From the NCBI GenBank assembly GCA_963802965.1, contig CAWDKS010000003.1, forward strand, positions 274,813-338,812: a stretch of DNA of 64,000 nucleotides, written 5' to 3'. Numbering within the stretch: the first letter of the stretch is position 1; every line of letters begins with the position of its first letter. Source of the DNA: an uncultured Verrucomicrobiae bacterium. Lineage in GTDB: Bacteria; Verrucomicrobiota; Verrucomicrobiia; Limisphaerales; UBA11358. This document shows, piece after piece, positions 3,313 through 63,443 of the stretch. The notes beneath the pieces were generated by a model. That model was given only the letters and a program-made list of their open reading frames with translations. It ran no database searches and was not told the origin of the DNA. A program made the position numbers and the translations under genes.

Positions 3313-3965
3313 AATTTCATCAAAGTTTGCATGATGTGGAGCGAACGTGCAAGGGAGGTTTGCCAGGACGCAGCCAAAATTTCCATCATGCGGTCACACT
3401 GATTGCCTTTCTCCTCGGCGTCGTTATCAAAATGGTCATTCACTTCAATATAAGCGCCAAACGGCTTTGCTGTCAACGAAGGCTCGACCGCAACGGAAAT
3501 TCTTCCTTTGTAATCATCGGGGCGTATGCCCTGCATTTGGATCCGCCTCATGCCCGGTTTTTCCAGCAGACCGGCCCACGGTTCTTTGGGAGCCAGGCGA
3601 TGCCCAAGCTGGTGCCATGCTTCTTCGCTCGGACTCCGAAAATGCGCGATGCGGTTGATGCCCATTTGCTTGACGGGCGTATGGCGCAGCAAACCAAAAG
3701 CGCCCAGCACCAGATCACGGAGCGGTTCAAGATTCTGAACCTGCGTCGTGCGAGCCGCGAAGCGATCCAGCGTTACCTCCACTGCCAGCCAGCCGATGGA
3801 AAACACACTGACATCATGCGAGACAATTTTGACGTCCGCCCGGTCGGCTTCCTCCTGCTGAATTAATTTTTCGCGCGCAAACCAAACGGGATGAAAGATG
3901 GCCGGATTAAACGAGCCAACCAACACGACGCTCACTTCTTCAAGCTCTGGTTTCAGGTCGGACAC
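3309..3965 (-). CDS. hypothetical protein (no recognisable family)
   Basis: 218-aa ORF and first gene of the three-gene minus-strand cassette. No signal peptide or TM segment is evident. Confidence 0.65.
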   Translation of the reverse strand: MSDLKPELEEVSVVLVGSFNPAIFHPVWFAREKLIQQEEADRADVKIVSHDVSVFSIGWLAVEVTLDRFAARTTQVQNLEPLRDLVLGAFGLLRHTPVKQMGINRIAHFRSPSEEAWHQLGHRLAPKEPWAGLLEKPGMRRIQMQGIRPDDYKGRISVAVEPSLTAKPFGAYIEVNDHFDNDAEEKGNQCDRMMEILAASWQTSLARSLHIMQTLMKL

Positions 3966-4150
3966 AGGATTAAAGCTTGCACATTAAGCAGCAATCCTAC
4001 CAGCTAAATCAAGCACGGTTTTCAACTCATGGTTTTGGCGCGTTAATTCGATTGGACAATGACAGCCAACGGCGACCGGAAATCCACCGGCAGCGGCTTT
4101 GGTTGCAGGTTGCGTTTTGATTTTTTAACCCGAGGCAGCCCCTCGATGAA

Positions 4151-5062
4151 TCAGTTCCGCGCTTCCGGATTTTTTCGCCGCGCGGCGAGGCCCAGGGGTT
4201 CGATGTGTACGAGCACGTCGCTGACGGCGGGTTTGGCGCCGCGGATTTTGTCCTTCACCGCGTGGGCGATTTCATGCGAGCGGAGCACGGTCATTTGCGG
4301 GTCCACTTCCACGTGCATGTCCACGAAATACTGATAACCCACCTTGCGAACGATGCATTTTTCCACCCTGCCCACGCCGGGCGTGTCCCGGGCGAGCTGG
4401 CGGATTTGGTCAATGATTTCACGGCTGGGCGCGGCGTCCATGAGTTCGTTGAGCGCCGGACGAAGCAAATGCCAGCCGTTCCACGCGATGACCCCCGCCG
4501 CCGCAATCGCCGCCACGTCGTCGGCGGCCTCAAAACCCCTGCCGCCGATGAGCGACACGCTGATGCCGATGCCGGCGGCCACGGACGTGATGGCGTCGCT
4601 GCGATGATGCCAGGCGTCCGTGCGCACGGCGGAACTGTCCACCGCCCTGCCTTCGCGCGAAACAAACCGGAACAAAATTTCCTTCACCGCCACCACCGCG
4701 ACCAGCACGATGAGCGTGAACGGCGCCGGCGCTTGGTGCGGTTCCCTGATTTCGCCGAACGCCTTGAGCGCGATCCAGAGCGCCGCCCCCAACAACATCG
4801 CGGCCACGATGGCGGAGGCAATCGGCTCGGCCTTGCCGTGGCCGTAGGGATGGTCTTCATCCGCCGGTTCCGCTGCGACGATGACTCCGCGCCAGACGAT
4901 GAGCGAGCTGAACACGTCGGCAAAGGACTCGACGGCGTCGGCGACGAGCGCGTGCGAATGGCCGGCGATGCCCGCGGCGAGTTTTGTGCCCGACAATACG
5001 ACGTTCGTCGCCATGCCGAGGAAGGTGGCGCGCAGGCTGCGTTGGAGACGGGTCAAGGGCAC
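4151..5062 (-). CDS. cation diffusion facilitator family transporter
   Basis: 303 aa with HSHALVADAVESFADV, DHPYGHGKAEP and WHHRSDA. It has six hydrophobic segments plus a C-terminal cytoplasmic domain. Confidence 0.9.
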   Translation of the reverse strand: MPLTRLQRSLRATFLGMATNVVLSGTKLAAGIAGHSHALVADAVESFADVFSSLIVWRGVIVAAEPADEDHPYGHGKAEPIASAIVAAMLLGAALWIALKAFGEIREPHQAPAPFTLIVLVAVVAVKEILFRFVSREGRAVDSSAVRTDAWHHRSDAITSVAAGIGISVSLIGGRGFEAADDVAAIAAAGVIAWNGWHLLRPALNELMDAAPSREIIDQIRQLARDTPGVGRVEKCIVRKVGYQYFVDMHVEVDPQMTVLRSHEIAHAVKDKIRGAKPAVSDVLVHIEPLGLAARRKNPEARN

Positions 5063-5152
5063 GGGCGGAAGTTAAACCCCCGCGCCGCCGAAAGTGGAGC
5101 GCAAAAGCGTTTTGAAAATCGGCTGGAGACGGAGCATGATGGGTTGGTTCGC

Positions 5153-6235
5153 ATGAATCGCAGCCGTCCATCCTTCCTTTCGGTCCGCGCCGCCGTGTTG
5201 CGCCCGCCGGGCGGTCCGCTGAAAATCGAGCGCCTGCAAATGGAGGGGCCGCGCGCCGACGAGGTGCTGGTGCGCCTGATCGCCAGCGGCATCTGCCACA
5301 CCGACATTGGTTTTTGTGAAGGCGGCGCGCGCGGCCCGGTGGTGCTGGGCCATGAAGGGGCGGGCGTGGTGGAACGGGCCGGCGAAAAAGTCAGAGGCGT
5401 GAAACCGGGCGACCACGTCGTGCTTTCCTACCAATCCTGCGGCCATTGCCCGGCATGCCGGCGCGGCCATCCGGCCGGCTGCGAACATTTCTGGAAGGCG
5501 AACTTCGGCTTCGCCCGGCTGGACGGCAGCAACGCGTTTCAAGGCGGTGTGCGCGGGCATTTCTTCGGCCAATCCTCGTTTGCGACCCACACGCTGGCGA
5601 CCGAACGGAATCTGGTGAAAGTTTCAAAATCGCTTCCGCTGGAATTGCTGGCGCCGCTGGGATGCGGACTGCAAACCGGTGCGGGCACGGTGTTGAACTC
5701 GCTGGCGGTCAAAGCCGGCTCGAGCCTCGCTGTTTTCGGCACGGGCGCGGTCGGGCTGGCGGCGGTGATGGCCGCGCGACTCGCGCGGGCGCGGACAATC
5801 ATCGCCGTGGACATCAATCCGCGCCGTCTCAAACTCGCCCTGGAGCTGGGCGCAACGCACAGCATTGACAATCGCAACGCCGATCTCGCCCGGAGCATCG
5901 CTGCCATCACCGGCGGCGGCGCCGACTACATCGTCGAAACCAGCGGCGCGTTGTGTTCGGAGGCCGCTGACTTGCTCAACCCGCGCGGCACGGCGGCGTT
6001 GTTGACCGGCGTGAGTGGTCCCGACTGGCTGCCGGGCGGACGCCGGGTTCTCAGTGTCATCGAAGGCGACGCGGTGCCGCAATTATTCATCCCGAAACTG
6101 ATCAAGCTGCATCAGGACGGGTGTTTTCCCTTTGACCGTCTGGTGAAATTTTATCGGTTCGCCGAAATCAACCGCGCCATCGCCGATGCCAGACGCGGCG
6201 ACACCATCAAGCCCGTGCTGCGGATGGGAAAGTGA
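5153..6235 (+). CDS. zinc-dependent NAD(P) alcohol dehydrogenase (aryl-alcohol dehydrogenase-like)
   Basis: C-terminal 360 codons of ORF 4205-6235, starting at MNRSRPS. Motifs are GICHTD, GHEGAGVVE, CGHCPACRRG and VFGTGAVGLAAV. The upstream part of the ORF is antisense to the CDF gene. Confidence 0.9.
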   Translation: MNRSRPSFLSVRAAVLRPPGGPLKIERLQMEGPRADEVLVRLIASGICHTDIGFCEGGARGPVVLGHEGAGVVERAGEKVRGVKPGDHVVLSYQSCGHCPACRRGHPAGCEHFWKANFGFARLDGSNAFQGGVRGHFFGQSSFATHTLATERNLVKVSKSLPLELLAPLGCGLQTGAGTVLNSLAVKAGSSLAVFGTGAVGLAAVMAARLARARTIIAVDINPRRLKLALELGATHSIDNRNADLARSIAAITGGGADYIVETSGALCSEAADLLNPRGTAALLTGVSGPDWLPGGRRVLSVIEGDAVPQLFIPKLIKLHQDGCFPFDRLVKFYRFAEINRAIADARRGDTIKPVLRMGK

Positions 6236-6300
6236 AATGTGATGCGTGACACGTGAAGAAATGGTTTCTTCCGCTCACGTTTCACGTCTCACGTCTCACG
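6236..6300. repeat. simple-sequence hairpin (arms built from CACGTGA/TCACGTC-like units)
   Basis: gtgatgcgtgacacgtgaag ... ctcacgtttcacgtctcacgtctcacgc are roughly complementary arms directly after the ADH stop. Confidence 0.5.
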
Positions 6301-6304
6301 CAAT

Positions 6305-6340
6305 CAGGTGGCAGAACATTCCGTCGCGGAGCTTGGGCTC
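6305..6340. repeat. 36-bp direct repeat, orphan copy of the DUF1015 gene 3' end
   Basis: caggtggcagaacattccgtcgcggagcttgggctc is identical (36/36) to 8813-8848. The reverse translation is EPKLRDGMFCHL. Confidence 0.9.
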
Positions 6341-6433: not shown

Positions 6434-8674
6434 TCAGTAAAACAGGTTGGCCCCGAAATCTGGAGTCTTCCCATCCATGACTTCGGCAATCCACTTGTCC
6501 AATTTGCCGCGGTCCATTTTCCAAAACTTGCGACAGTGCATGAAATACTCCACCACCGTATCGCGCTCGCCTTTTTCCAGAAGGTCTTTGGCCAGAGTCA
6601 TGTTGGGGCCGAAACTGTCCATCGTTGGCGAGCCGGGACTTTTGCCGGCGGCAATCAGATACTTTTTTGCCGCTTCGATGTTGCCTTCGCGCGCGGCAAT
6701 CCGGCCAAAAACCAAGTTGGCGTCCTGAATGGCATTTCCATAGTTCCAGTCACCTTTGTATTTCGGCAGCAGCGTCGTCAGCTCTTGGGCGTAATTTCGC
6801 GCATCATCAATTTTGTCGGCCACAAAACTCTCCTTGGCGGCGGCGTCAAGCGCATAAAATCGTTTCTCTTCCGTTTTGGCCGTTTTCAAATCATTCATCG
6901 CCCGCTTGTAGTTTTGCCGGGATATGTCTTGTAGAGAAAGGGACGGAAAGGAACCCGTGTAATGTTTTATCAGAACAAACGACAACGGGACGAACAACAG
7001 ACACCCAATCATGATTCCCCGTTGCACACGGGTGGAAAACGTCCGCACCCGTGGCTTGATGAAAAAATCCGCTTCCGGCACCTGGCCAACCGCGCGTTCC
7101 GCCGCCGCCAAATCCCCGTTGTTAAATTTGACCCACGCGGACTCAATCGCCCACGAAACAACATTTTCCAACTCGCTGTCGGACGGAAGTTTTTCACCCT
7201 GCAACCGCCGGAGAGTTTTCCGGTCTGTTTGACCCAATCTGGCCGCCACTTTGCCATCCGGTTGCAATAACAGGCGGGAATTCTGCGACCAGCTTGGAAA
7301 ATTTCGCAGCATACTCCAAACTGACGCTTTTGCCGGCGGCAGCCTTAATTCGAGTCCGTCTTCAGCCCAACGATGATTGCTGGCCAGCCAGCGTGTGCCG
7401 AGGAAGCGGGCAAAAGCGAGCAGCTCTTCTTCGGTGCAATTGTGCTTCTCTTGAAAGTCCGCATCATCGGCTTTCAACAAGCCTTCGGCTCCGCGCACAA
7501 ATAAATTGTAATCCATCCGCATGGGCTGTTGGGTTTGATACCGCACCATTACGAATGATTGAAGCAGGATCAGTATCATACACCAGCCCAGCGGCATCCA
7601 ACCCAATCCGACCAACAAAAACGACAAAAACAAAACGCTGTTGCAAAGCATGGCAGCAATGGAATAATGGCTTCGATTGATTGACACCCGTTTGATTTGG
7701 AAGGGCAACATGACCAGGCCAATGCCAGCAATTATGAGATAAAATGTTTTCCAGTTGCTTGGATTGAGCCGCGGTATCAGAAACCACATTCCCACCATTA
7801 TCAGTGCGAACCACAGAACCCCCCACCGCGTATTTTCACGGAACAAGCGGGCGCGAAACCCTTTTTGATCCCGGAAATTTGCCAGCTCCAGCCGCATGAG
7901 CAGCCAATGAACCAGCACAAAAGGCAGGAAAAACAGCAGCGCGAAAGATGAAATAACCCATTTCACCGGCGCAAGTTTAGCGAGGGTTCCCAAAATCGTC
8001 GCGCCAATGCCGCCCGCCGTCGCAGCTTTCGCGGTCGAAGATGCCAGCACGCCGGCCATGATGGCGGGAACCAGCGTTTTGGCCGGCCCCAATTTCGCCA
8101 GCGAGCCTTCTAGTTTTTCCTCGAGCCGTGCGCGCATCGCGGCGCGGGCGCGGTGCAGGCGCACGCGCAAGGCGGTTTCGGAAATTCCCAGCGCCGCCGC
8201 CGCTTCCGCGCCACTCCTGCCTTCGAGATAAAACAGCACCAGACATTCGCGGTGCGAATCCGGCAGTTCCGCGAGCGTCTGCCGCAAGGTTTCCGGCGTG
8301 TAAAGCGGGTCGGTTTCGTCGCCGGAATTTTCTTCGGTGGAGTTGTCCGGATTTTCCAGCGCCCAACGTTTGCGTTTGTTGAGTTCACGGCGATGGCGCA
8401 GGCCGAGATTGATGGCAACGTGGCGCGCGATGGTGTTGACCCAAGCGGCGAATTTCGCGCCGTCGCCGAGCAGCCACAGCCGCCGATACGCGCGGATGAA
8501 CGCCTCCTGCGTGACCTCTTCCGCAAGCGCGGCATCGCCGAGCCGGCTCCATGCAACGGCATATACACGCCGCTCATGACGCTCGACGAGTTCACGGTAG
8601 CGCTCGGCATCGCCGCGCCGCACGGCGGCCACGGCGGATTCGTCCTGTTGCGCGCTGGTCATTTCGGTTTGCAT
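6434..8674 (-). CDS. ECF-type sigma-70 factor fused to a polytopic membrane region and a large C-terminal domain
   Basis: 746 aa. Residues 1-190 carry sigma region 2 and 4 (RYRELVERHERRVYAVAW..., ECLVLFYLEGRSGAEAAAALGISETALRVRLHRAR). Several hydrophobic helices follow (aa ~200-400 and ~570), then a helical-repeat-like tail. Confidence 0.8.
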   Translation of the reverse strand: MQTEMTSAQQDESAVAAVRRGDAERYRELVERHERRVYAVAWSRLGDAALAEEVTQEAFIRAYRRLWLLGDGAKFAAWVNTIARHVAINLGLRHRRELNKRKRWALENPDNSTEENSGDETDPLYTPETLRQTLAELPDSHRECLVLFYLEGRSGAEAAAALGISETALRVRLHRARAAMRARLEEKLEGSLAKLGPAKTLVPAIMAGVLASSTAKAATAGGIGATILGTLAKLAPVKWVISSFALLFFLPFVLVHWLLMRLELANFRDQKGFRARLFRENTRWGVLWFALIMVGMWFLIPRLNPSNWKTFYLIIAGIGLVMLPFQIKRVSINRSHYSIAAMLCNSVLFLSFLLVGLGWMPLGWCMILILLQSFVMVRYQTQQPMRMDYNLFVRGAEGLLKADDADFQEKHNCTEEELLAFARFLGTRWLASNHRWAEDGLELRLPPAKASVWSMLRNFPSWSQNSRLLLQPDGKVAARLGQTDRKTLRRLQGEKLPSDSELENVVSWAIESAWVKFNNGDLAAAERAVGQVPEADFFIKPRVRTFSTRVQRGIMIGCLLFVPLSFVLIKHYTGSFPSLSLQDISRQNYKRAMNDLKTAKTEEKRFYALDAAAKESFVADKIDDARNYAQELTTLLPKYKGDWNYGNAIQDANLVFGRIAAREGNIEAAKKYLIAAGKSPGSPTMDSFGPNMTLAKDLLEKGERDTVVEYFMHCRKFWKMDRGKLDKWIAEVMDGKTPDFGANLFY

Positions 8675-8714: not shown

Positions 8715-8806
8715 CGACCGGACATTTACGATTTGCGATATACGATTTACAAGGCTGCTCCAATTTCGAGACTGGCGCGTAAATCGTAAATCGTCATTCG
8801 TAAATG
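8715..8806. repeat. simple-sequence hairpin (ATTTACG/CGTAAAT units)
   Basis: catttacgatttgcgatatacgatttac ... gtaaatcgtaaatcgtcattcgtaaatg. Same architecture and unit as 11015-11095. Confidence 0.55.
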
Positions 8807-10087
8807 TCAGAGCAGGTGGCAGAACATTCCGTCGCGGAGCTTGGGCTCGAACCAGGTGCTTTTCGGCGGCATGACGCCGCCGGCGTCCGCAATCGCCATC
8901 AAATCCTCGATGTTCACCGGGAACAGGGAAAACGCGCAGGCGGCTTCGCCGCTGTTCACGAGTTTTTCCAATTCCGCCGTCCCGCGAATGCCGCCGACGA
9001 ATTGGATGCGCCTGTCCGTGCGCGGGTCTTTGACGCCGAACACCGGCTCGAACACGTGTTGTTGGAGCAGGGTCACGTCGAGTTGCTCAACCGGGTCATC
9101 GGTCGCCCACAATTTCCTGGGAAAGATCAGCGTCCGCCATCGGCCGCCCAAATAAAGGCTGACTTCATGATTGCGGCCGGGGGCGGCCGCGCCGTTTGGG
9201 TCCATGGCAAAAACGGTGCCGAGGATTTCCAGCGCCTGTTCCGGGGTCCAGCCGTTCAAATTCTTCAACACGCGGTTGTAGGGCAGTATCTGCATCCGGT
9301 CGTGCGGGAAAATCACGGTCAGAAATTGTCCGCTGTGATCCCGTTCCGTGGCAGCCGACGTGAGCCGGCTCTGGCTTTTATCCGCAGAAGTTTGAGCGGA
9401 CTCACGTCCGCTGCCACGTTTCAAATAAATGCGCGCCGCCGCCGCGCTGCGATGATGGCCGTCGGCGATGTAAAGCGCCGGAACCTCCGCGAATTCGGTT
9501 TCGATGAACTGGATTTCCTTCGCGGCGTGAATCGTCCACGACGAGTGCCGCACGCCGTCCTTGGCGGTGAAATCAACCTCCGGTTTTCCGGAAGTTTTTT
9601 TTGCGATGAATTCGGCAACCAACTTTGGGGCGCGACCGGCCAGGGACGCCGGGCCGGTTTGCGCATTCAGCGCTTCGATGTGCCGCACCCGGTCGTCCTC
9701 CTTGTCCGGGCGCGTGAGCTCGTGCTTCTTGATGACGCCACGCAGGTATTCCCCGCAATCCGCCGCGGCGACCAGACCGGTCTGCGCGCAATCGCCCATA
9801 ATTTGCCGATACAGATAAAAACACGGCTGCGGGTCCTGCCGCAGCGCGCCGTCGCGGATGAGCTTTTGAAAATTTTCCCGGCCCCGCGCATAAACCTCCG
9901 GCGCGCAAGCGTCCGTGCCCGGCGGCAGGTCAATCTCCGGTTTGCTGACGTGGAGAAAGCTCAACGGATTGCCGGCGGCCATCTGGCGGGCTTCGTCCGA
10001 CGACATCACGTCGTAGGGCAGCTCGCAGATTTTTTCCGCGAGTTCCGGTTTGGGTCGCAACGCGGCGAAGGGTTTGATGGTCGCCAT
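8807..10087 (-). CDS. DUF1015 domain-containing protein
   Basis: Start taken at MATIKPFAALRPKPELAEKICELPYDVMS (ATG 10087). It also contains YIADGHHR and C-terminal PPKSTWFEPKLRDG, typical of DUF1015. Confidence 0.85.
   Translation of the reverse strand: MATIKPFAALRPKPELAEKICELPYDVMSSDEARQMAAGNPLSFLHVSKPEIDLPPGTDACAPEVYARGRENFQKLIRDGALRQDPQPCFYLYRQIMGDCAQTGLVAAADCGEYLRGVIKKHELTRPDKEDDRVRHIEALNAQTGPASLAGRAPKLVAEFIAKKTSGKPEVDFTAKDGVRHSSWTIHAAKEIQFIETEFAEVPALYIADGHHRSAAAARIYLKRGSGRESAQTSADKSQSRLTSAATERDHSGQFLTVIFPHDRMQILPYNRVLKNLNGWTPEQALEILGTVFAMDPNGAAAPGRNHEVSLYLGGRWRTLIFPRKLWATDDPVEQLDVTLLQQHVFEPVFGVKDPRTDRRIQFVGGIRGTAELEKLVNSGEAACAFSLFPVNIEDLMAIADAGGVMPPKSTWFEPKLRDGMFCHLL
8813..8848. repeat. 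36-bp direct repeat, genic copy (DUF1015 3' end)
   Basis: Identical to 6305-6340. Here it encodes the true C-terminus ...EPKLRDGMFCHLL-stop. Confidence 0.9.
9346..9418. repeat. palindromic ~75-bp element (twin GTGA-loop hairpins) embedded in frame in the DUF1015 CDS
   Basis: ccgtggcagccgacgtgagccggctc...gagcggactcacgtccgctgccacg. The same termini and hairpins occur in the intergenic copy at 29697-29774. Confidence 0.7.
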
Positions 10088-11014: not shown

Positions 11015-11095
11015 AGATTTACGATGGACGATTTACGAGGTGAATTTGGAACGAAGCGCGATTCGTAAATCGAAAATCGCAAATCGTAAATGGCT
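11015..11095. repeat. simple-sequence hairpin (ATTTACG/CGTAAAT units)
   Basis: agatttacgatggacgatttacgagg ... cgattcgtaaatcgaaaatcgcaaatcgtaaatgg, lying between smpB and rpoZ. Confidence 0.55.
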
Positions 11096-11463: not shown

Positions 11464-12363
11464 ATGTCCGCAACGACCCGATTCAATCTGCCGCAATTTC
11501 TGGCCACGCGCACGGAAACCGTCAACCGGGCGCTCGATGGATTCCTGCCGTCGGCGACCACGAGGCCCGCCACCATCCACAAGGCGATGCGTTACTCGCT
11601 CTTCGCCGGCGGCAAGCGGATGCGTCCCGCGCTCTGCCTCGCCGCCGCGCAGGCCTGTGGCGGACGCGAGGCCGATGCCCTGCCGCTCGCGTGCGCCGTC
11701 GAGTGCATCCACACCTATTCGCTCATCCACGACGATCTGCCGGCGATGGACAACGACGATTTCCGCCGCGGCAAGCCCACCAACCACAAGGTCTTCGGAG
11801 AAGGCATCGCCGTGCTCGCGGGCGACGCGCTATTGACGCAGGCGTTTGAGATCGCTGCGCAGGGCAGGGGATGGCCGCGCTATCCGCATCGCGATTTGAT
11901 TCTGGAAATTGCGAAGGCCGCCGGTTCACTGCAACTCGTCGCCGGGCAGGTGGCGGATTTGGAAGGCGAAGGCAAAAAACTTTCCATCGCCGAATTGAAA
12001 TTCATCCACGAGCGCAAGACCTCCGCGCTGCTCTGCTGTTCCGTGCGGCTGGGTGGCATGAGCGCGAACTGCACGTCCGCGCAGTTCCGCGCGCTGACGG
12101 ATTTCGGCTATCACGTCGGGCTCGCCTTCCAGGTGATTGACGACATCCTCGATGTGACGCAGACCAGCGAGCAGCTCGGCAAGACGGCGGGCAAAGACGT
12201 GGCCGTGCAAAAGGCGACCTACCCGGCGATTGTCGGGCTGGAAAAATCGCGGCAGATCGCGGCGCAACTGACGGCCAAGGCGTTTGCCGCGCTGAAAATT
12301 TTCAAAGGCAAAGCTGTCGCTCTCGAAGCTCTAGCGGAATTTCTTTTGAAAAGGGAGAAATAA
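11464..12363 (+). CDS. polyprenyl diphosphate synthase (FPP/GGPP synthase family)
   Basis: Contains the first and second Asp-rich motifs, LIHDDLPAMDNDDFRRGKPTNH and FQVIDDILD. Confidence 0.9.
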   Translation: MSATTRFNLPQFLATRTETVNRALDGFLPSATTRPATIHKAMRYSLFAGGKRMRPALCLAAAQACGGREADALPLACAVECIHTYSLIHDDLPAMDNDDFRRGKPTNHKVFGEGIAVLAGDALLTQAFEIAAQGRGWPRYPHRDLILEIAKAAGSLQLVAGQVADLEGEGKKLSIAELKFIHERKTSALLCCSVRLGGMSANCTSAQFRALTDFGYHVGLAFQVIDDILDVTQTSEQLGKTAGKDVAVQKATYPAIVGLEKSRQIAAQLTAKAFAALKIFKGKAVALEALAEFLLKREK

Positions 12364-12656
12364 AATTACTCATCAACCGAAACAAAGGTATTTTTTGAAA
12401 TGTAATCCTGCTCAATAAAATTTTTCTGTTCGCCGTTTTTGCGCGAGAAGCCCGAGAACTTAACTGGCAAGCCACTGTAATCCAAAGAATTGTGACAGAG
12501 AAAGGCTTGTTCTTGCAGAAGATGAAAATAATTGCAAAAGCACCAATCCAGAACAAAAGATTCTTGACGAGTTTTTGCATTTGATTTTCTGCGTTTGTGA
12601 ATAGCAGCTAACTTTGATTCAAGCAAGTGGGATTGGCGTTGCTCACCAAAAGTTTT

Positions 12657-12718
12657 TCATTCGCTCCACTCGCCGGCTTGCAGATACGGCTTGAGTTTTT
12701 CCTTGAGCGTTTCGCGTC
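12657..12718. repeat. copy 1 of duplicated ECF sigma 3' end (orphan)
   Basis: 62 nt with 3 mismatches to 14184-14245. Reverse translation [18 protein letters not shown]-stop. Confidence 0.85.
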
Positions 12719-12763
12719 TGCAAAAATCTTTGATTCTTTCCAAAGTAATGCTAGTCTTACCGC

Positions 12764-13018
12764 ATGATTGCCAAAGTTTCAGTCAAAGGCCAGACGGTGA
12801 TTCCCGAAGCGGTGCGCGAGCAGGCGCGGATCAAAAGCGGCGATGAACTGGACGTCGGCTACGCCAACGGACTGATCGTGATGCGCAAACGCCGCGCCTT
12901 GACGCCCGCGCGCGTCCGCGCGCTGATTCTGTCCGGTCGCGAACTTCCCGAAATGACGCCGGCGGCTGAAGCGGTCGTGTCGCAGGCCGTCCAGCGGGTC
13001 CGCCGCCGCCGCAAATAA
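12764..13018 (+). CDS. AbrB/MazE/SpoVT-family antitoxin
   Basis: MIAKVSVKGQTVIPEAVREQARIKSGDELDV. The stop overlaps the PIN gene ATG. Confidence 0.8.
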   Translation: MIAKVSVKGQTVIPEAVREQARIKSGDELDVGYANGLIVMRKRRALTPARVRALILSGRELPEMTPAAEAVVSQAVQRVRRRRK

Positions 13019-13422
13019 TGAGGGTCGTCTTCGACACCAACGTCGTCGCCAGCGCGAGCTTCTGGCGCGGAACGCCGTTTGATTGTCTGGCGGCGTGGGC
13101 GAAAGGCCGTTGCGAAGCCGTGGTCAGCCCCGCGTTGCTCGCCGAATACCACGAAACCGTCGAGGAACTTCGTTTGGAATACCATGGACGGCCGTTCGTG
13201 CCGTGGGCGGATGCGCTGGCCGGGTCCGCCACGCTGGTTTTTCCCGTTGAACGCGCCACGGGCGCAACGCCTGATCCCGCCGATGAAATGATTTTGGAAT
13301 GCGCGCTGGCGGCGGAGGCGGATTACCTCGTGACCGGCGACAAAAAACATCTGCTGCCCTTGAGAAGATTTCAGGAAACCCCCATTGTCGGCCCGTCAGA
13401 ATTTCTTCGCCGATTGGTTTAG
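13018..13422 (+). CDS. PIN-domain toxin
   Basis: MRVVFDTNVVASA...PDPADEMILECALAAEADYLVTGDKKHLL, matching the PIN acidic residues. Confidence 0.8.
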   Translation: MRVVFDTNVVASASFWRGTPFDCLAAWAKGRCEAVVSPALLAEYHETVEELRLEYHGRPFVPWADALAGSATLVFPVERATGATPDPADEMILECALAAEADYLVTGDKKHLLPLRRFQETPIVGPSEFLRRLV

Positions 13423-13429
13423 AGGATTC

Positions 13430-13488
13430 TCATCCGCTCCACTCGCCGGTTTGCAGATATGGCTTGAGCTTTTCCTTGAGCGTTTCGC
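13430..13488. repeat. copy 2 of duplicated ECF sigma 3' end (orphan)
   Basis: 59 nt with 3 mismatches to 14184-14242. Reverse translation [18 protein letters not shown]-stop. Confidence 0.85.
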
Positions 13489-13495
13489 ACCCGGT

Positions 13496-14182
13496 TTAAT
13501 TCCCCGACCATTTGTAGTCGTAGCCGTCGGGCGGTTCGTATTTGACCGGAAACCCGCCGCCGCCCTGGACTCCGTTCCAGTAGATTTTGATGTAATCCAC
13601 GTGGCCGTCCACAAAGCTCATCACGTTGCGCGCGTCCGGGAATTGCAGCGGCTGCCGGCGGTCGTGGCTGCTCAAGCCGATGCCACCGGAATCTTCCCCG
13701 ATCAGTTCGGTCCGGGCCGGCTCGTGCACGGAGGCGAACGGCTTCTGCGCCATGTCCAGTTCGTTCGTGTCGTCATTGAACACGCCGCCGTTGAACCAGT
13801 AGCTGGAAAAATGGGTATCCGGCAGGTTGCAAAAGCCCCGGCATTGGAACGGGCCGAACAGCCATTGGCCGATCGGGCCGGACAAGTCGAAATCATCGGC
13901 GGCGCACACGAAAACGGCGTTGTTGGATAAACCCCCGCCGATATACGGCAAAATGTTTTCTTTGTAATCGAAGTAAATGGAATTGGTGTAGTAAGCGATG
14001 GCATCGCCGTGTTCATCCGCATACAGATGGACGGCCAGATTGATTTGACGAACATTGCTGACGCACGCGATTCGTTTGGCAGACGACTTGGCCCGGCTCA
14101 ATACCGGCAAAAGCAAGGCCGCAAGAATGGCGATGATGGCAATCACCACCAGCAGTTCAACCAAGGTGAACGCGCGTTTCAT
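13496..14182 (-). CDS. prepilin-type N-terminal cleavage/methylation domain protein (DUF1559 / H-X9-DG type)
   Basis: [32 protein letters not shown] at the N-terminus. Near the C-terminus, the H and DG in [13 protein letters not shown]. Confidence 0.85.
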
Positions 14183-14183
14183 T

Positions 14184-14245
14184 TCATTCGCTCCACTCGC
14201 CGGTTTGCAGATACGGTTTGAGCTTTTCCTTGAGCGTTTCGCGTC
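14184..14245. repeat. copy 3 (genic) of the ~60-bp repeat
   Basis: The last 20 codons plus stop of the sigma gene. Matches 12657-12718 and 13430-13488. Confidence 0.85.
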
Positions 14246-14786
14246 CGCGATGGATGAGCGATTTCGTGGCGGAGAGTGAGCAGTCCAGAATTTCGGCGAT
14301 TTCCTCGTAGCTCAAATCCTCCTGCCGGCAGAGCAGAATGGCCGTGCGCTGGTTCTCCGGCAGTGCGGCCAATGCCTCCTCGATTTTCTGCGCGAGTTCG
14401 CCGTGCAACAGTTTTTCCGGGGCGGCGATTTGTGATTTGTCCTCGTATTGCTGGCGCGGCTGGTCCTCGTGCTCGGCGTGAGCCTCCTCGATGGATTCGG
14501 CGGGATGCCGCGAGCGCCGGCGGAGTTCATTCAGGCACAGGTTGCGCGCGATGGTGAACAGCCACGTGGAAAATTTCGCCGTCCGTTTGTAGCGGCCCCG
14601 GGATTTGTAAACCTGCAGGAAAACCGTCTGTGCCAGGTCCTCGGCCTCAATCTCGTCGCGCAGCGAGCGGTAGATGAAATTCAGCACCGGCTGCTTGTAT
14701 TTGTCCACCAGCCCGGCAAACGCCGCGCGGTCGCCGCGTTTCACGCGGAGCATCAGGGCGGCATCGGGGTCGGGCTGGACTGGCAT
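14184..14786 (-). CDS. ECF-type RNA polymerase sigma-70 factor
   Basis: Start taken at [23 protein letters not shown] (the ORF extends to 14852). Contains [20 protein letters not shown] and [27 protein letters not shown]. Confidence 0.85.
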
Positions 14787-14855
14787 CGCATGGAGTTTAA
14801 CCAACAAGGCGCGTGCGACAAGGTTTCGCTCGTTCAAGCCGGGACAATTCAATTA

Positions 14856-15000
14856 AACCACGGATGGACACGGATGAACACGGATGCAGACAAGGCAAAA
14901 TGGCGTCTTCAGGGAACCGGGAATACCTCGTTGGCCAGTGAACTCATTTACTTTGCTGAAGTCTTTTTCTATCCGTGTTTATCCGTGTCCATCCGTGGTT
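14856..15000. repeat. MITE-like element with 30-bp terminal inverted repeats built from CACGGATG units
   Basis: aaccacggatggacacggatgaacacggat (14857-14886) against atccgtgtttatccgtgtccatccgtggtt (14971-15000). 29 of 30 positions are complementary, with an 84-bp spacer. Confidence 0.7.
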
Positions 15001-15178
15001 GAACGTTTTTCTACGGCATGCTTCCGGTTAAGAACCGGCTGACTTCGAGCGTGGTTCGCCAATAAGTCCGGAACGGCCCCAAAAAAATGTGTCGCCGCCA
15101 AAAAGCTTTCGATAAGCTCCGGACGTCAGACCTGACAAAACGGGACAGGTCATCATTTAATCCATACCGAAACAGCGC

Positions 15179-23554: not shown

Positions 23555-23806
23555 TGCCGCCATTTTGGGAGCTTCTCCCGCGTTCTTGACCACTCCCGCC
23601 GCGAACGTGGAATCCTTTGCCGCGATTCTGGTTTCTCTTGCCGCCGATTTGAAACCCGCTGCCGCACTTTTGGGAATGGTTGCCGCGAAATTGGAAACTC
23701 CTGCCGCAAACTTGGGAGCTTCCGCTGCGAACTTGGAGGTCGTTGCCGCGAATTTGGAAATCCTTGCCGCATTCCCGCAACCTTCTGCCGCAGAGCTAAT
23801 TATACA
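23555..23806. repeat. tandem array, 12 units of exactly 21 bp (consensus TGCCGCGAAnTTGGAAnnnnn)
   Basis: Unit starts fall at 23555, 23576, 23597 ... 23786, so phasing is kept without indels. The edge units are degenerate. The array is open in several frames. Confidence 0.85.
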
Positions 23807-23959
23807 TTTTCCCCGCAACAAACCGACCAACAACAACCAAACTGAAAAACTGAAATCATAAAACAATGAAAACTCAAATGGCGATCCGAATTCCGCACTT
23901 GTCCTGACTCTTTTCCTGTATTCAGTTTGGGATGGACGATTGGGGCAATTGACGTTTGA

Positions 23960-24461
<502 letters not shown>

Positions 24462-25080
24462 CGTGGCGGCGTCTCGGCAGAGCGCCGCAAACCGTGACGG
24501 AATTTAGATGGCGGCTTTCTCCCGAAAGCCGCTACGCCGAAACGGAATTGTCGCGCACTCCGCAATTCGCAATTCGAAGTTGTCATGGCTCTTTTCCGGT
24601 TTTCATTTTGGGATGGACAAAAACGAAGACGGTGAGGAATTATGAATAAAATTTTATCAGCTCGTCAATCGCTCCACAAATTACATCGAGTGGGTGCTTT
24701 TTATTCCAATCTTCATCTTTCAAACCAGCAACTCGTTTGGTCAGGGCGTCAAGTCATTGTCTGTCGGCAAAATCGTTTTGCATCATGTGGTCAAGGATGC
24801 GACGAAGGTTCGTTTGCTCAGGAGCGCGGGTTTGATTGACGCCAAAGTGGTTCGGGTGGATACGGTCAATGATCGGCGCGCCGCGCCGACCGGACGCCGC
24901 AGCGCGGCGTCCCTACCTTGAAAGCGCGGACGTGTCTGTGCAGTCCAAAGTTGTAGCAGTCCCGCAGTGCGGGATGAGTCCGCTTATTCCTACCGCTGCC
25001 GAACGGCAAAACCGGCCCATGATTTGCCAAAATCCGGCGAGCGTTTCCCCGCCTGAACCCTGATTTTACGATGATGAAAA

Positions 25081-52502: not shown

Positions 52503-53246
52503 TCAGCTTCCACTCGTCGTGGTTAAAACCATGTTCGTGCGCGACTGCGAATCAATCGGCACAACCATTTCAATCGGTTCCGCCGTCGCGCCGCCATTGC
52601 CCGACATTTGAATGTCCACGCGGACGGCGGACGGCAGGTTCGTGTTCATCGAGGTCAGGCCGGTGGTGTCCCAGGTGTCCTGCCATTGCGAGCCGTCAAA
52701 GCAGGAAAATTTGATGCTCGCCACGCCGCTCAGCATGAGCTGGTCTTCCACTTCCGGCGTCGTCAGGGTCAACAGATTCCGCGTGACGCTGCGGACCAAA
52801 TCCCGGCCGGTGGCGGAGCGGTCGGCCGGCTGCCTCAACTCGTAGGTGACGCGCTGGATGTCGGCCCACGGCGCGTTGACGCCCAACGCGCCGGTCGCGG
52901 TGAACATCTCGATCGCCACCGGTTCGGGCACGCCGGGACTGGTCACGTCGCCGACCTTGAAATCGCCGGACAGAACCTTGCTCGTCCCGTTGGTCGGCGT
53001 CACGGCGCACTGCAAATCGCGGCGCAAAAACGTGACCGTCTGATCCACCGGCCCGGCCGCGTCCACGACATCGCTTGTCGCCTCGCGCAGACGCAGCGCG
53101 GCAAACAGCACGGCGTTGACGGCGATCAGCACAATGGCCGCGACGCCGATGGCGAGAACCATCTCAATCAGCGTGAACGCGTGGCACGGCGTTGAAGCGT
53201 TGAAGCGTTGAAGCGTTGAAGTGGGCAACGTGCGGCCACGCTGCAT
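52503..53246 (-). CDS. GspJ-like minor pseudopilin
   Basis: ...STLQRFNASTPCHA-FTLIEMVLAIGVAAIVL. Start uncertain (ATG 53246 or 53300). Confidence 0.65.
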   Translation of the reverse strand: MQRGRTLPTSTLQRFNASTPCHAFTLIEMVLAIGVAAIVLIAVNAVLFAALRLREATSDVVDAAGPVDQTVTFLRRDLQCAVTPTNGTSKVLSGDFKVGDVTSPGVPEPVAIEMFTATGALGVNAPWADIQRVTYELRQPADRSATGRDLVRSVTRNLLTLTTPEVEDQLMLSGVASIKFSCFDGSQWQDTWDTTGLTSMNTNLPSAVRVDIQMSGNGGATAEPIEMVVPIDSQSRTNMVLTTTSGS

Positions 53247-53299
53247 CGTTTCAACGCTGCATCGCTCCAACGGCCTATCTTTTTTTGTTTCAATTTTCA

Positions 53300-53806
53300 C
53301 TATCGCAAACTCATGGTTGTCGTCGCGGGCTGGTTCTGCAAATTCGCCAGCGTGCTCAGTTGCACCGAGTAATCCCTGCCCTGCGCCTGGAACGTCACTT
53401 GCGCCGTCAGCAGTTGCATCGGACCCTGCGGCCAGGCCTGGCTGGACAGCGTCCAGCGGAAATCCAGCGCGCCTTCCGACACCGTTCCGTTTTGCACGCC
53501 GTTGTTCCAGTTGGTCATGACGAGGCTCTCGTTCAAAATCCGGTCGGCAATACGCGCCGCCGCGCCCTTCCGCGCCGCAACCTCGCCCGCGCGGCTGGAG
53601 ACGTGCAGCGCCTCCACCGCCACCGGAATGACGATGGCGAGGAACAGCATCGCCGCCAGCACCTCGGCCAGCGTGAACGCCTGGGAGCGCCGGCTTCCAG
53701 CCGGCGTGTTTCGCAGGTCACAAAACTGCAACTCGCCGGCTGGAAGCCGGCGCTCCCGGAAACACGGCGTCGCAAAATGCTTATTGTTTCGTGTCGCGAA
53801 TTTCAT
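53300..53806 (-). CDS. GspI-like minor pseudopilin
   Basis: ...RRSQA-FTLAEVLAAMLFLAIVIPV. Start uncertain (ATG 53806 or TTG 53731). A 24-bp perfect inverted repeat (53683-53706 / 53734-53757) lies in the 5' part. Confidence 0.65.
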   Translation of the reverse strand: MKFATRNNKHFATPCFRERRLPAGELQFCDLRNTPAGSRRSQAFTLAEVLAAMLFLAIVIPVAVEALHVSSRAGEVAARKGAAARIADRILNESLVMTNWNNGVQNGTVSEGALDFRWTLSSQAWPQGPMQLLTAQVTFQAQGRDYSVQLSTLANLQNQPATTTMSLR

Positions 53807-54377
53807 AACCCGTGTGGTTGCGCGTTTCGATCAGCCAGCGCGAAACGCCGGCGGAGTCCGTCAATTGCAGCGTCTGCGGACTGTTTTCATCCACCGTGCC
53901 ATCCGCCAGAAAACGGATGGCCGGCAAATTGTTGAAAGTTGTCGGCGTGCCCGAACCAGTATTCAGCACCGCGATTTGCAGCGTTGAATCCACCGGCAAA
54001 GTTTCCGCCTTCGGGTCGCCGGTCTTGCCGGTTGTTTCCGCTTCGAGTCCGTAGGCGCCCTGTTTTTCGTCCACCCAAAGCACCATCGGCAGGCCCTCCG
54101 AAACCGCGCGGCTCTGGCCGGCGTGCATCAGCGCGAACAGCCGCCGCGCCTCGGAATCCAGCGCGCGGCCGCGGATGAAATTCGCCATCGCCGGCGCGGC
54201 GAGCGACGTGATGACGACCAGCAACGCCAGAACGAGGGTCAACTCGATCAGGGTGAAGGCCCGACGAAGCGTTGAAGCGTTGAAGCGTTGAAGTGTTGAA
54301 ACGGAAAAAGCGCCGTCCCGCTGCAACGCTGGAACGTTGCAACACTTCAACAGGGCATTTCGCTTCAACAATTTCAT
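53781..54377 (-). CDS. GspH-like minor pseudopilin
   Basis: ...STLQRFNASTLRRA-FTLIELTLVLALLVV. Confidence 0.7.
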   Translation of the reverse strand: MKLLKRNALLKCCNVPALQRDGAFSVSTLQRFNASTLRRAFTLIELTLVLALLVVITSLAAPAMANFIRGRALDSEARRLFALMHAGQSRAVSEGLPMVLWVDEKQGAYGLEAETTGKTGDPKAETLPVDSTLQIAVLNTGSGTPTTFNNLPAIRFLADGTVDENSPQTLQLTDSAGVSRWLIETRNHTGYEIRDTKQ

Positions 54378-63368: not shown

Positions 63369-63443
63369 TGGCTCCAGAGGTAGGGCTCGAACCTACAACC
63401 CATCGGTTAACAGCCGATTGCTCTACCATTGAGCTACTCTGGA
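63369..63443 (-). tRNA. tRNA-Asn (anticodon GTT), CCA encoded
   Basis: The minus strand folds as a cloverleaf: TCCAGAG-TA-GCTC-AATGGTA-GAGC-A-ATCGG-CTGTTAA-CCGAT-GGGTT-GTAGG-TTCGAGC-CCTAC-CTCTGGA-G-CCA. Confidence 0.92.

Follow-up and report, generated by a model that had tools for sequence, protein, structure and literature searches.

Copies of the 3' end of an ECF sigma factor gene delimit small accessory cassettes in a variable islet of Limisphaerales genomes

The DNA analysed here is a 64-kb stretch (hereafter the window) from the genome of an uncultured soil bacterium of the Verrucomicrobiae, order Limisphaerales (assembly GCA_963802965.1, contig CAWDKS010000003.1, positions 274,813 to 338,812). 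It carries a gene for an extracytoplasmic function (ECF) sigma factor whose 3' end recurs twice downstream, so that three copies of the same gene end separate two small cassettes. We call these copies tails, the one within the gene being the genic tail and the other two orphan tails. The neighbours of the sigma gene in the window are holB, which encodes the delta' subunit of DNA polymerase III, and the polyprenyl synthetase gene ispA. Relatives were taken from Limisphaerales metagenome-assembled genomes and metagenome contigs, and their loci are referred to by numbers preceded by L. The features of the locus, in the direction in which the sigma gene is read, are listed below.

14184-14786, minus strand: ECF sigma gene, 200 aa (Pfam Sigma70_r2, r4_2 and ECF; NCBIfam sigma70-ECF), the anchor or docking gene
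14182-14248, minus strand: genic tail copy, comprising the last 21 sigma codons, TGA and 2 nt
13496-14182, minus strand: cassette 1, encoding 228 aa with an N-terminal methylation domain of prepilin type (sole matches Pfam N_methyl and NCBIfam IV_pilin_GFxxxE)
13428-13494, minus strand: orphan tail copy 2, with homology at 13430-13488, joined on its 5' side to cassette 1 within the microhomology CGGAC[A/G]CGAA
12764-13422, plus strand: cassette 2, an AbrB/MazE-type antitoxin (12764-13018) and a PIN_3 toxin (13018-13422), by Pfam and NCBIfam
12655-12721, minus strand: orphan tail copy 3, read as the oldest; tail and AT-rich region collinear with L122
12364-12654, minus strand: AT-rich stretch with a candidate small membrane open reading frame (ORF; 12302-12580, minus strand), conserved in L122, L168 and L023 by tblastn/blastn
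11464-12363, plus strand: ispA-like polyprenyl synthetase (Pfam polyprenyl_synt), convergent with sigma, the conserved far flank of the variable islet

The ECF sigma factor, AbrB antitoxin and PIN toxin that the first-pass annotation of this DNA had named were all verified by Pfam and NCBIfam. Its "H-X9-DG" label for the gene at 13496-14182 did not hold, as there was no family match and, although the C-terminal FVDGHV resembles the motif, the canonical His ten residues upstream is missing. The ATG of this gene lies 1 nt past the sigma stop codon (TGAAATG). The two cassettes measure 0.68-0.70 kb, and prepilin, AbrB and PIN were the only Pfam or NCBIfam domains in them. The sigma gene itself is a conserved core gene, with thousands of orthologues at 88-93% amino acid identity in Verrucomicrobiae/Limisphaerales metagenomes. 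No exact-protein matches to the window sigma and prepilin-like proteins were found. The ispA gene also forms the downstream flank in L001, L002, L004, L005, L011, L025, L028, L047, L095 and L214.

All three tails are direct copies on the minus strand and lie where the first-pass annotation had put them. A 54-nt core of the genic tail (14189-14242) matched 13435-13488 with two mismatches and 12662-12715 with three, and it had no match in 100 dinucleotide-preserving shuffles; none of the three copies is expected by chance. The earlier count of three mismatches between each orphan and the genic copy was exact over the intervals then compared. Homology in register with the genic tail covered 67 nt at 12655-12721 (94%) and 59 nt at 13430-13488 (95%). 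In these orphans it ended abruptly 59-67 nt before the stop codon and 2-5 nt past it, and copy-by-copy comparison revealed no homology further upstream of either one. Both retained the reading frame, with TGA at the homologous position, and four of the seven differences in the orphan tails were synonymous third-position changes.

Two simple explanations of the copies can be set against these observations. The assembly is of the metagenome type, in which repeats of about 60 nt may be wrongly collapsed or expanded. However, the three window tails differ from one another at 3-9 positions and have unique flanks, and the same architecture was seen in about 30 independent assemblies from various projects and assemblers, on contigs of 0.35-1.5 Mb. 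The architecture is thus not peculiar to the window assembly, and we regard an artefact as practically out of the question. The orphans might instead be remnants of paralogous or tandem sigma genes that decayed in place, in which case the first-pass annotation had expected longer homology upstream of each copy in relatives. Longer orphan fragments do exist in other loci (about 89-95 nt in L160, L167 and L171; 154 nt in L054), as do degenerate, truncated tails (L047:3638, L112:2423, L191:8927 and L213), which indicate that orphans do decay. In the window, however, homology stops within 59-67 nt of the stop codon, and no second full or half sigma gene of this family was present in 212 loci. Fragment lengths clustered rather than being spread over the 600-nt gene, junctions were specific to the cassette, and cassettes were present or absent independently. 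Decay in place is close to refuted. Separately, a 331-aa product (P0001) considered as a tail fusion was rejected, because it is an N-terminally extended gene call.

The first-pass annotation had called for a cassette-by-cassette comparison with relatives, and this comparison revealed independent occurrence at the tail boundaries. Both window cassettes showed INDEPENDENTLY presence/absence among relatives, with boundaries exactly at the tail copies. The closest relative found, L214 (sigma 92% and ispA 89% identical in nucleotides), had one tail, another gene of 261 aa and neither cassette. L002 likewise had neither cassette and one tail, with about 95 nt from sigma to ispA. In L214, L002 and L004 a single sigma tail is followed by ispA, which represents the empty-site state. 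L122 carried the prepilin cassette, one tail and the AT-rich region without the AbrB/PIN pair, while in L162 and L196 the AbrB/PIN pair lay directly 3' of sigma. In L013 the sigma and prepilin genes were collinear with the window (78% over 1369 nt), and no tail was found behind the prepilin gene. The difference between L011 and L177, whose sigma genes are 98.9% identical, was the prepilin cassette, and the tail of L177 was a hybrid that joined the 5' part of L011 tail 2 to the 3' part of L011 tail 3. Such a hybrid is the expected product of tail-by-tail recombination. The serial accretion of small cassettes at the sigma 3' end, as first proposed, is thus supported by independent presence and absence (L122, L162/L196, L214 and L002) and by other cassette orders elsewhere.

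The AT-rich stretch beyond the last tail had been described earlier as holding no convincing gene. Neither it nor its small ORF had a Pfam or NCBIfam match. The stretch is not empty filler, since it is the DNA found directly behind the sigma tail in relatives. It is conserved directly behind the tail in L122, and the first ~35 codons of the small ORF (12302-12580) stand directly behind the sigma tail in L023 and L168. Judged from these relatives, copy 3 (12655-12721) looks like the oldest tail. It would be the original end of sigma, with the native downstream DNA still behind it, displaced as the cassettes were added later. In L001:8976-13753, where sigma is 96% identical in amino acids, the sigma-ispA interval measured 5.4 kb and encoded a 1039-aa protein along with a tandem pair of prepilin-type paralogues (76% alike in nucleotides). 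No orphan tail was present there, so the islet also varies without leaving tails.

The arrays are widespread in the order. We examined 80 orthologous sigma loci from species-representative genomes, each searched with its own sigma tail, and 120 further metagenome loci picked by a 19-mer from the sigma tail. Extra downstream copies were found in 5 of the 80 (L005, L007 and L054 with 2 copies each, L047 with 4 and L011 with 5), and two or more copies in 25 of the 120. Thirty loci besides the window therefore have 2-5 tail copies that bound recurring cassettes. The 41 inter-tail segments clustered into recurring families in varied positions and orders, with the following contents.

PIN and DUF6364 pair (family A): seen 8 times between tails
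Unstab_antitox pair: seen 5 times between tails
Prepilin-like gene cassette: window, L011, L126 and L122
AbrB/PIN pair: window, and L111, L162 and L196 (81-86% nucleotide identity)
Alpha-L-fucosidase cassette: a further inter-tail family
Type II restriction-modification (RM) unit: L054
Other inter-tail cargo: DJ-1/PfpI; PemK/MazF toxins; a C_GCAxxG_C_C protein; a CDGSH protein; an FtsK-like ATPase of 1294 aa; a Calx-beta protein

Most of this cargo belongs to toxin-antitoxin (TA) or RM systems, and the cassettes are in mixed orientation. The order was fucosidase, prepilin gene, PIN/DUF6364 and TA2 in L011, PIN/DUF6364 and fucosidase in L007, and prepilin gene, fucosidase and DJ-1 in L112. The cassettes are shown by these comparisons to be independent units, bounded exactly by tails, that recur in different orders in many genomes with junctions specific to the cassette. 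The loci were strongly mosaic. Between L011 and L126 the sigma genes were 97.7% identical, the fucosidase cassette 99% and PIN/DUF6364 86.6%, and more than half of the sigma differences fell in the tail. Tails at the same position in L011 and L177 differed at about 15 of 56 sites, though identity between their sigma genes is 98.9%. A search for cassettes moved recently over long range gave no clear case beyond such local mosaics, as cassette identity mostly followed sigma identity. Among 23 contigs that share one identical sigma orthologue (the P0032 population), a single invariant context was seen, and none carried an array, which made this population uninformative. In L095, two sigma-tail copies lie inverted 3.2 kb apart near ispA (9059-9122, minus strand, and 12374-12436, plus strand), with no sigma gene in the 14.6-kb sequence. 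This arrangement suggests an inversion or translocation between tails.

Alignment of all tail copies revealed that the two ends of the repeat behave differently. The 3' limit was always the stop codon, give or take a few bases, which is where the lineages cease to align. The 5' limit was fixed within each family of upstream cassettes and differed between families. Relative to the stop codon, the 5' edges were as follows.

Prepilin cassette: about -59 to -63
TA2 and AbrB/PIN: about -64
PIN/DUF6364 (family A): about -70
Fucosidase: about -76
A further type, behind some others: about -89
RM insert of L054: -147

The first-pass annotation had spoken of a single attachment site. Accretion at one gene end was borne out, but a site in the site-specific sense probably was not, as the 5' edge varies from about -59 to -147 with the cassette family. 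The last codons and the context of the stop codon tended to go with the downstream cassette, as with EPK-stop GTGAAAATTC before fucosidase and TGAAATTCA before PIN/DUF6364. The orphan behind TA2 in L181 had the tail variant specific to the lineage of L181, yet its 5' junction was that of TA2.

One junction could be followed from its unjoined state. In L013, the sequence past the stop codon of the prepilin gene is TCCGGACACGAAG, compared with GCGGACGCGAAACG in the tail, while the junction in genomes where a tail follows reads (A/T)C(C/T)GGAC(G)CGAAACG. The join thus lies in a microhomology of 9-12 nt with GCGGACGCGAA of the tail. The sequence GGCGGACG is common to the 5' edge of the tail and to tail-abutting elements that resemble repetitive extragenic palindromes (REPs). 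Units like REPs or miniature inverted-repeat transposable elements (MITEs), with ends TTTCGGAGGGCGGAGCGCTGCGACGCCCTGA and GCCGCGCCGACGGCGCTCCGAAA, often stand immediately beside tails (L177:9873-9990, L005, L011, L047, L112 and L129). In L177 a REP-like unit interrupts a tail, with the 12-nt CGCGGACGCGAA on either side of it. A MITE/REP element as generator of the repeats was rejected, because many tails have no REP nearby; the REPs are thus bystanders or providers of microhomology.

Repeats of this kind are not confined to the sigma gene. The first-pass annotation had linked the sigma tails with a repeat at the end of a DUF1015 gene, and a third site in the window is a BrnT toxin gene between direct repeats. 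Their features are given below.

8813-8848, minus strand: 3' end of the DUF1015 gene (gene 8807-10087/10156), ending in MFCHLL and stop
6434-8674, minus strand: ECF sigma fused to a membrane/C-terminal region of ~560 aa (746 aa in all; Pfam), between the DUF1015 tails
6302-6340, minus strand: orphan DUF1015 tail (repeat 6305-6340), identical at 36/36 positions and followed by ATT GCG TGA, ending in MFCHLIA and stop
23881-24618, plus strand: BrnT toxin (23969-24250) and partner ORF (24228-24461), with direct repeats at 23881-23937 and 24562-24618

The DUF1015 repeat is real, and comparison with relatives clarified its setting. In the empty state (L212 and L214), the DUF1015 gene is followed by a hairpin and a cation-efflux gene. 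L216 has a 760-aa orthologue of the sigma-membrane fusion (3528-5810) between the hairpin and the efflux gene, without an orphan tail; this fusion is absent in L212 and L214. The window has the hairpin, the fusion gene, 86 nt, the orphan tail with a different hairpin of its own, a convergent zinc-dependent alcohol dehydrogenase gene (5186-6235) and the efflux gene. The orphan tail is thus internal to the extra DNA and not at its edge. The genic tail is of the L212/L214 type (HLL and stop), while the orphan resembles the L215/L216 type (HLI). This difference in type suggests that the copies are not a simple duplicate, as would be expected if one of them had come from another lineage. The fusion protein has several predicted membrane segments, and its C-terminal domain has no family match. 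The BrnT repeats align over 57 nt at 79% identity, or 49 nt at 84%, and the partner ORF has no family match. This site is intergenic, with an aminotransferase gene on one side and a 602-aa ORF without assigned function on the other. Just upstream of the first BrnT repeat, at 23560-23790, there are imperfect tandem units of ~21-24 nt (TTGCCGCGAA[A/T]TTGGAAA-like). The idea of a process recurring at gene ends in this genome holds, given the DUF1015 and BrnT cases within the same 64 kb, with the qualification that the DUF1015 orphan is internal to the extra DNA. The phenomenon is independent of sequence, as it occurs at the sigma gene, at DUF1015 and at the intergenic BrnT site.

The differing ends bear on whether the repeats were made in one step, by insertion into a staggered or resected break whose fill-in would duplicate 36-154 nt of target, with no tail brought by a donor. 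A clean example of such an event is L054, where a 2.7-kb type II RM unit lies within a 154-nt, 96%-identical duplication (-147 to +7) and L055 provides the empty site. The cargo is mostly TA and RM, and Furuta et al. 2010 (PMC2853133) describe this class of insertion and suggest double-strand breakage as a common factor. However, target duplication would give identical ends, and in several arrays the flanking copies differ in their last codons and stop context, which move with the cassette (TGAAATTCA in family A versus EPK-stop on the next tail; HLL-stop versus HLIA-stop at DUF1015). In addition, the same cassette keeps its 5' junction across genomes and array positions, and the DUF1015 orphan is internal to extra DNA. 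One-step duplication seems improbable.

We then considered a recombinase. A phmmer search seeded with two tyrosine integrases, XerD and gamma-delta resolvase detected no tyrosine or serine recombinase, either in the window or in loci with arrays, and the pre-computed Pfam calls on the relatives' contigs agreed with this. The same four seeds gave no tyrosine-recombinase-like ORF in the window or array loci that could represent IntI with an adjacent attI. Folded as single-stranded DNA, the three copies, and both strands of the genic copy, gave z-scores of +0.47 to -1.36 against shuffles, so attC-like or terminator-like structure in the tail was rejected as no better than random. The tail copies are conserved in sequence and in reading frame. 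The synonymous-codon entropy of the last 25 codons (0.9-1.06), measured over loci of which 120 had been chosen by the tail 19-mer, equalled the gene average, and an overlapping DNA-level signal in the genic tail was rejected on this ground. No ECF promoter with GGAAC-N16-CGT-type spacing was seen in the tail by eye. The tail 19-mer had no match in IMG/VR viral contigs, and the whole array had none among phages and, among plasmids, only the generic prepilin N-terminal motif. The first-pass statement that there is no integrase, no attC-like site and a different kind of repeat thus stands for the local sequence. Three consecutive tyrosine-recombinase-like ORFs lie ~4 kb downstream of sigma in L161 (8158-11221), a single-tail locus; this was the sole recombinase cluster that we saw downstream of sigma.

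An array resembling integrons, cis-mobilizable elements or staphylococcal cassette chromosome elements could nevertheless form if the sigma tail were a true attachment site for non-autonomous cassettes served in trans by a tyrosine or serine recombinase encoded elsewhere in the genome. Arrays with as many as five tails contain single genes or TA pairs as cassettes, the usual cargo of integrons, and each cassette owns a tail at its distal end, like an integron cassette with its attC. Most 5' edges fall at -59 to -80 and an A/T-rich motif often lies past the stop codon, while the differing cassette orders imply excision and reinsertion. In the tycheposons of Prochlorococcus, successive integrations at one site push older elements inward and leave partial target copies between them (bioRxiv 10.1101/2020.12.28.424599). 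Yet no such enzyme was found in the window or beside ~30 arrays, the tail has neither attC-like structure nor excess nucleotide-level constraint in the gene, and the repeat length ranges from 36 to 154 nt across cassette families. The mixed orientation of the cassettes also fits poorly, and the same architecture at two unrelated window sequences would need several specificities. Site-specific recombination retains some plausibility, given the clustering of most 5' edges and the TGAAATT-like motif often seen past the stop codon, but we consider it unlikely. A bolder version is doubtful to a similar degree: the sigma tail may be the docking site of an undescribed Limisphaerales cassette system, integron-like but using the coding 3' end of a core gene. 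It would rely on an unlinked, unrecognised recombinase or a dedicated short-homology pathway, carry TA or defence cargo, and have equivalent docking sites at other gene ends.

Taken together, the variable, cassette-specific 5' edges, the 3' edges at the limit of alignment, the presence of donor-type and recipient-type tails side by side, the junction microhomology, the occurrence at unrelated sites, the lack of detected recombinases and the addictive cargo are best fitted by homology-anchored recombination. We propose that the sigma-ispA interval is a hypervariable islet produced by repeated recombination without an element-encoded recombinase, through homology-anchored accretion, and we give this reading a probability of about 0.5; its route is what we infer from the comparisons. 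In the first step, DNA would enter from a relative that has a different gene immediately behind the same sigma gene. The incoming DNA would pair with the recipient through the conserved sigma gene, which would act as the homologous anchor, and its non-homologous far end would be joined illegitimately at a short microhomology within the recipient sigma 3' end. The favoured spot would be GCGGACGCGAA, about 60-66 nt before the stop codon. As the donor brings a complete gene end, the last ~60 nt of the recipient gene and everything beyond would be pushed downstream and kept as an orphan tail. Homology-facilitated illegitimate recombination (HFIR) is known to join at microhomologies of 3-10 bp (PMC6382021). 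In the second step, a cassette bracketed by tails would be open to ordinary homologous recombination between tails or between sigma and a tail, and such exchange could delete, reinsert, swap or transfer cassettes. In the window, the AbrB/PIN pair and the prepilin-like gene would be additions upstream of the oldest tail (12655-12721). Selfish cargo that is hard to lose, such as TA and RM systems, would accumulate.

Several observations weigh against homology-anchored accretion. Ten of the 11 orphan tails first examined start within -52 to -80, and this clustering could mark a recognition site. The A/T-rich, TGAAATT-like motif is found past the stop codon in many copies whatever cassette follows, and might represent the core of a crossover site. 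Microhomology has been documented in one cassette family and at REP-associated junctions, not in every family. The recombinase search used only four seeds, on ~1.9 Mb of local sequence. The duplication of native sequence from -147 to +7 in L054 also fits one-step target duplication. Cassette divergence mostly tracks the divergence of the host sigma gene, so the pattern may in large part reflect long-standing vertical descent and differential loss, which would leave few events in which the route can be tested. Finally, the model presupposes that these bacteria take up DNA or carry out HFIR.

The arrays bear on the question of how variable islets of accessory or selfish genes arise in bacteria that lack obvious mobile-element machinery. 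The sigma locus offers a natural series for tracing the route, with ~30 assemblies, empty, singly and multiply occupied states, cassette-specific junctions and one microhomology junction. If accretion anchored by homology is the true mechanism, any conserved gene that precedes lineage-specific DNA could come to carry such a stack. Orphan tails would then record past recombination between lineages as scars that can be dated, and could be used to trace gene flow among uncultured soil Verrucomicrobia. Should a recombinase prove to be responsible, the arrays would instead represent a new integron-like system.

Further repeats were noted elsewhere in the window. Intergenic inverted repeats lie at gene ends (14853-15003, 8728-8806, 6236-6301 and 11016-11091), with short tandem heptamer-like units (CACGGATG, CGTAAAT and CGTGAGA). 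The gap between sigma and holB contains an inverted-repeat pair whose 33-nt arms are 94% complementary. L212, L214 and L216 have other inverted-repeat unit sequences at the equivalent positions. At 53153-54351, two segments of 112-119 nt, 74-75% alike and 1080 nt apart, comprise the N-terminal methylation motif of tandem prepilin-type paralogues and a GTTGAAGC repeat, and they look like ordinary tandem paralogues. The sole tRNA gene of the window is at 63369-63443.

Arrays with tandem accretion at a gene 3' end are known from other systems. Cis-mobilizable elements (CIMEs) accrete with the integrative and conjugative elements (ICEs) ICESt1 and ICESt3 at fda, and composite staphylococcal cassette chromosome (SCC) elements at rlmH/orfX. 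Their att cores measure 15-30 bp, and a tyrosine recombinase or the Ccr serine recombinases are encoded on a partner element. The sigma arrays resemble them in having at least three direct copies of the gene 3' end between elements, non-autonomous elements without a recombinase, and a gene restored by the copy that the element carries. Here, however, no recombinase was found, the repeat length varies with the cassette, and the units measure 0.6-2.7 kb. Instead of a fixed core shared by all elements, the 5' limit ranges from about -59 to -147 according to cassette family. Integrons, and CALINs, which are clusters of attC sites without an integrase, are alike in their small promoterless or self-contained cassettes rich in TA systems, a repeat of ~60 nt after each, and variable order. 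In contrast, the repeat here is a coding fragment conserved in sequence rather than a structured attC, no IntI or attI was found, and orientation is mixed. The minimal mobile elements of Neisseria, reportedly described by Saunders and Snyder, are whole-gene cassettes between two conserved genes; transformation, with homologous recombination in the flanking DNA, passes them from strain to strain. They share strain-variable cassettes and the lack of a recombinase with the sigma locus, but occupy their sites singly and have no internal repeats of a flanking gene. Tycheposon arrays are similar in the degenerate partial target copies that mark older events. They target tRNA genes and have tyrosine recombinases and replication modules, whereas the sigma arrays are built on a protein gene from cassettes without mobility genes. 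In layout the sigma arrays work like tandem accretion and superficially resemble an integron, but the features that define the CIME/ICE, SCC, tycheposon and integron families, namely an integrase, a fixed core and attC structure, were not found in the local sequence.

The closest correspondence is with insertion with long target duplication (Nobusato et al. 2000, Gene 259:99; PMC2853133), a descriptive class in which small inserts that lack transposase and integrase lie between direct repeats of more than 30 bp. In that class, as here, a relative with an empty site has one copy of the repeat, which frequently spans a stop codon, and the gene is left intact. Insertions of RM units with target duplications of long and variable length are frequently found across stop codons, carry no mobility genes and come mostly from naturally competent species (PMC2853133). 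Our repeats all exceed 30 nt (sigma, 59-67 nt; DUF1015, 36 nt; BrnT, 49-57 nt). Empty sites were found for the sigma array (L214, L002 and L004), AbrB/PIN (L122), the RM unit of L054 (L055) and DUF1015 (L212 and L214). The cassettes of 0.68-0.70 kb are within the 20-kb limit of the class, and phmmer detected no recombinase. Addictive RM cargo is shared, and L054 is a textbook RM example at the sigma gene. The arrays differ from the class in that they hold mainly TA pairs and ordinary genes, and in being serial stacks of up to four cassettes and five tails at one gene end in many species. Moreover, the flanking copies are not always of the same type, which points to tails brought by donors. The searched literature held no published description of sigma-tail arrays. 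The question of how insertion with long target duplication comes about dates from 2000, and homology-anchored accretion is offered here as a mechanistic proposal for it. In descriptive terms the sigma-tail arrays belong to this class, and they extend it to serial stacks, to TA and ordinary cargo, and to a whole bacterial order.

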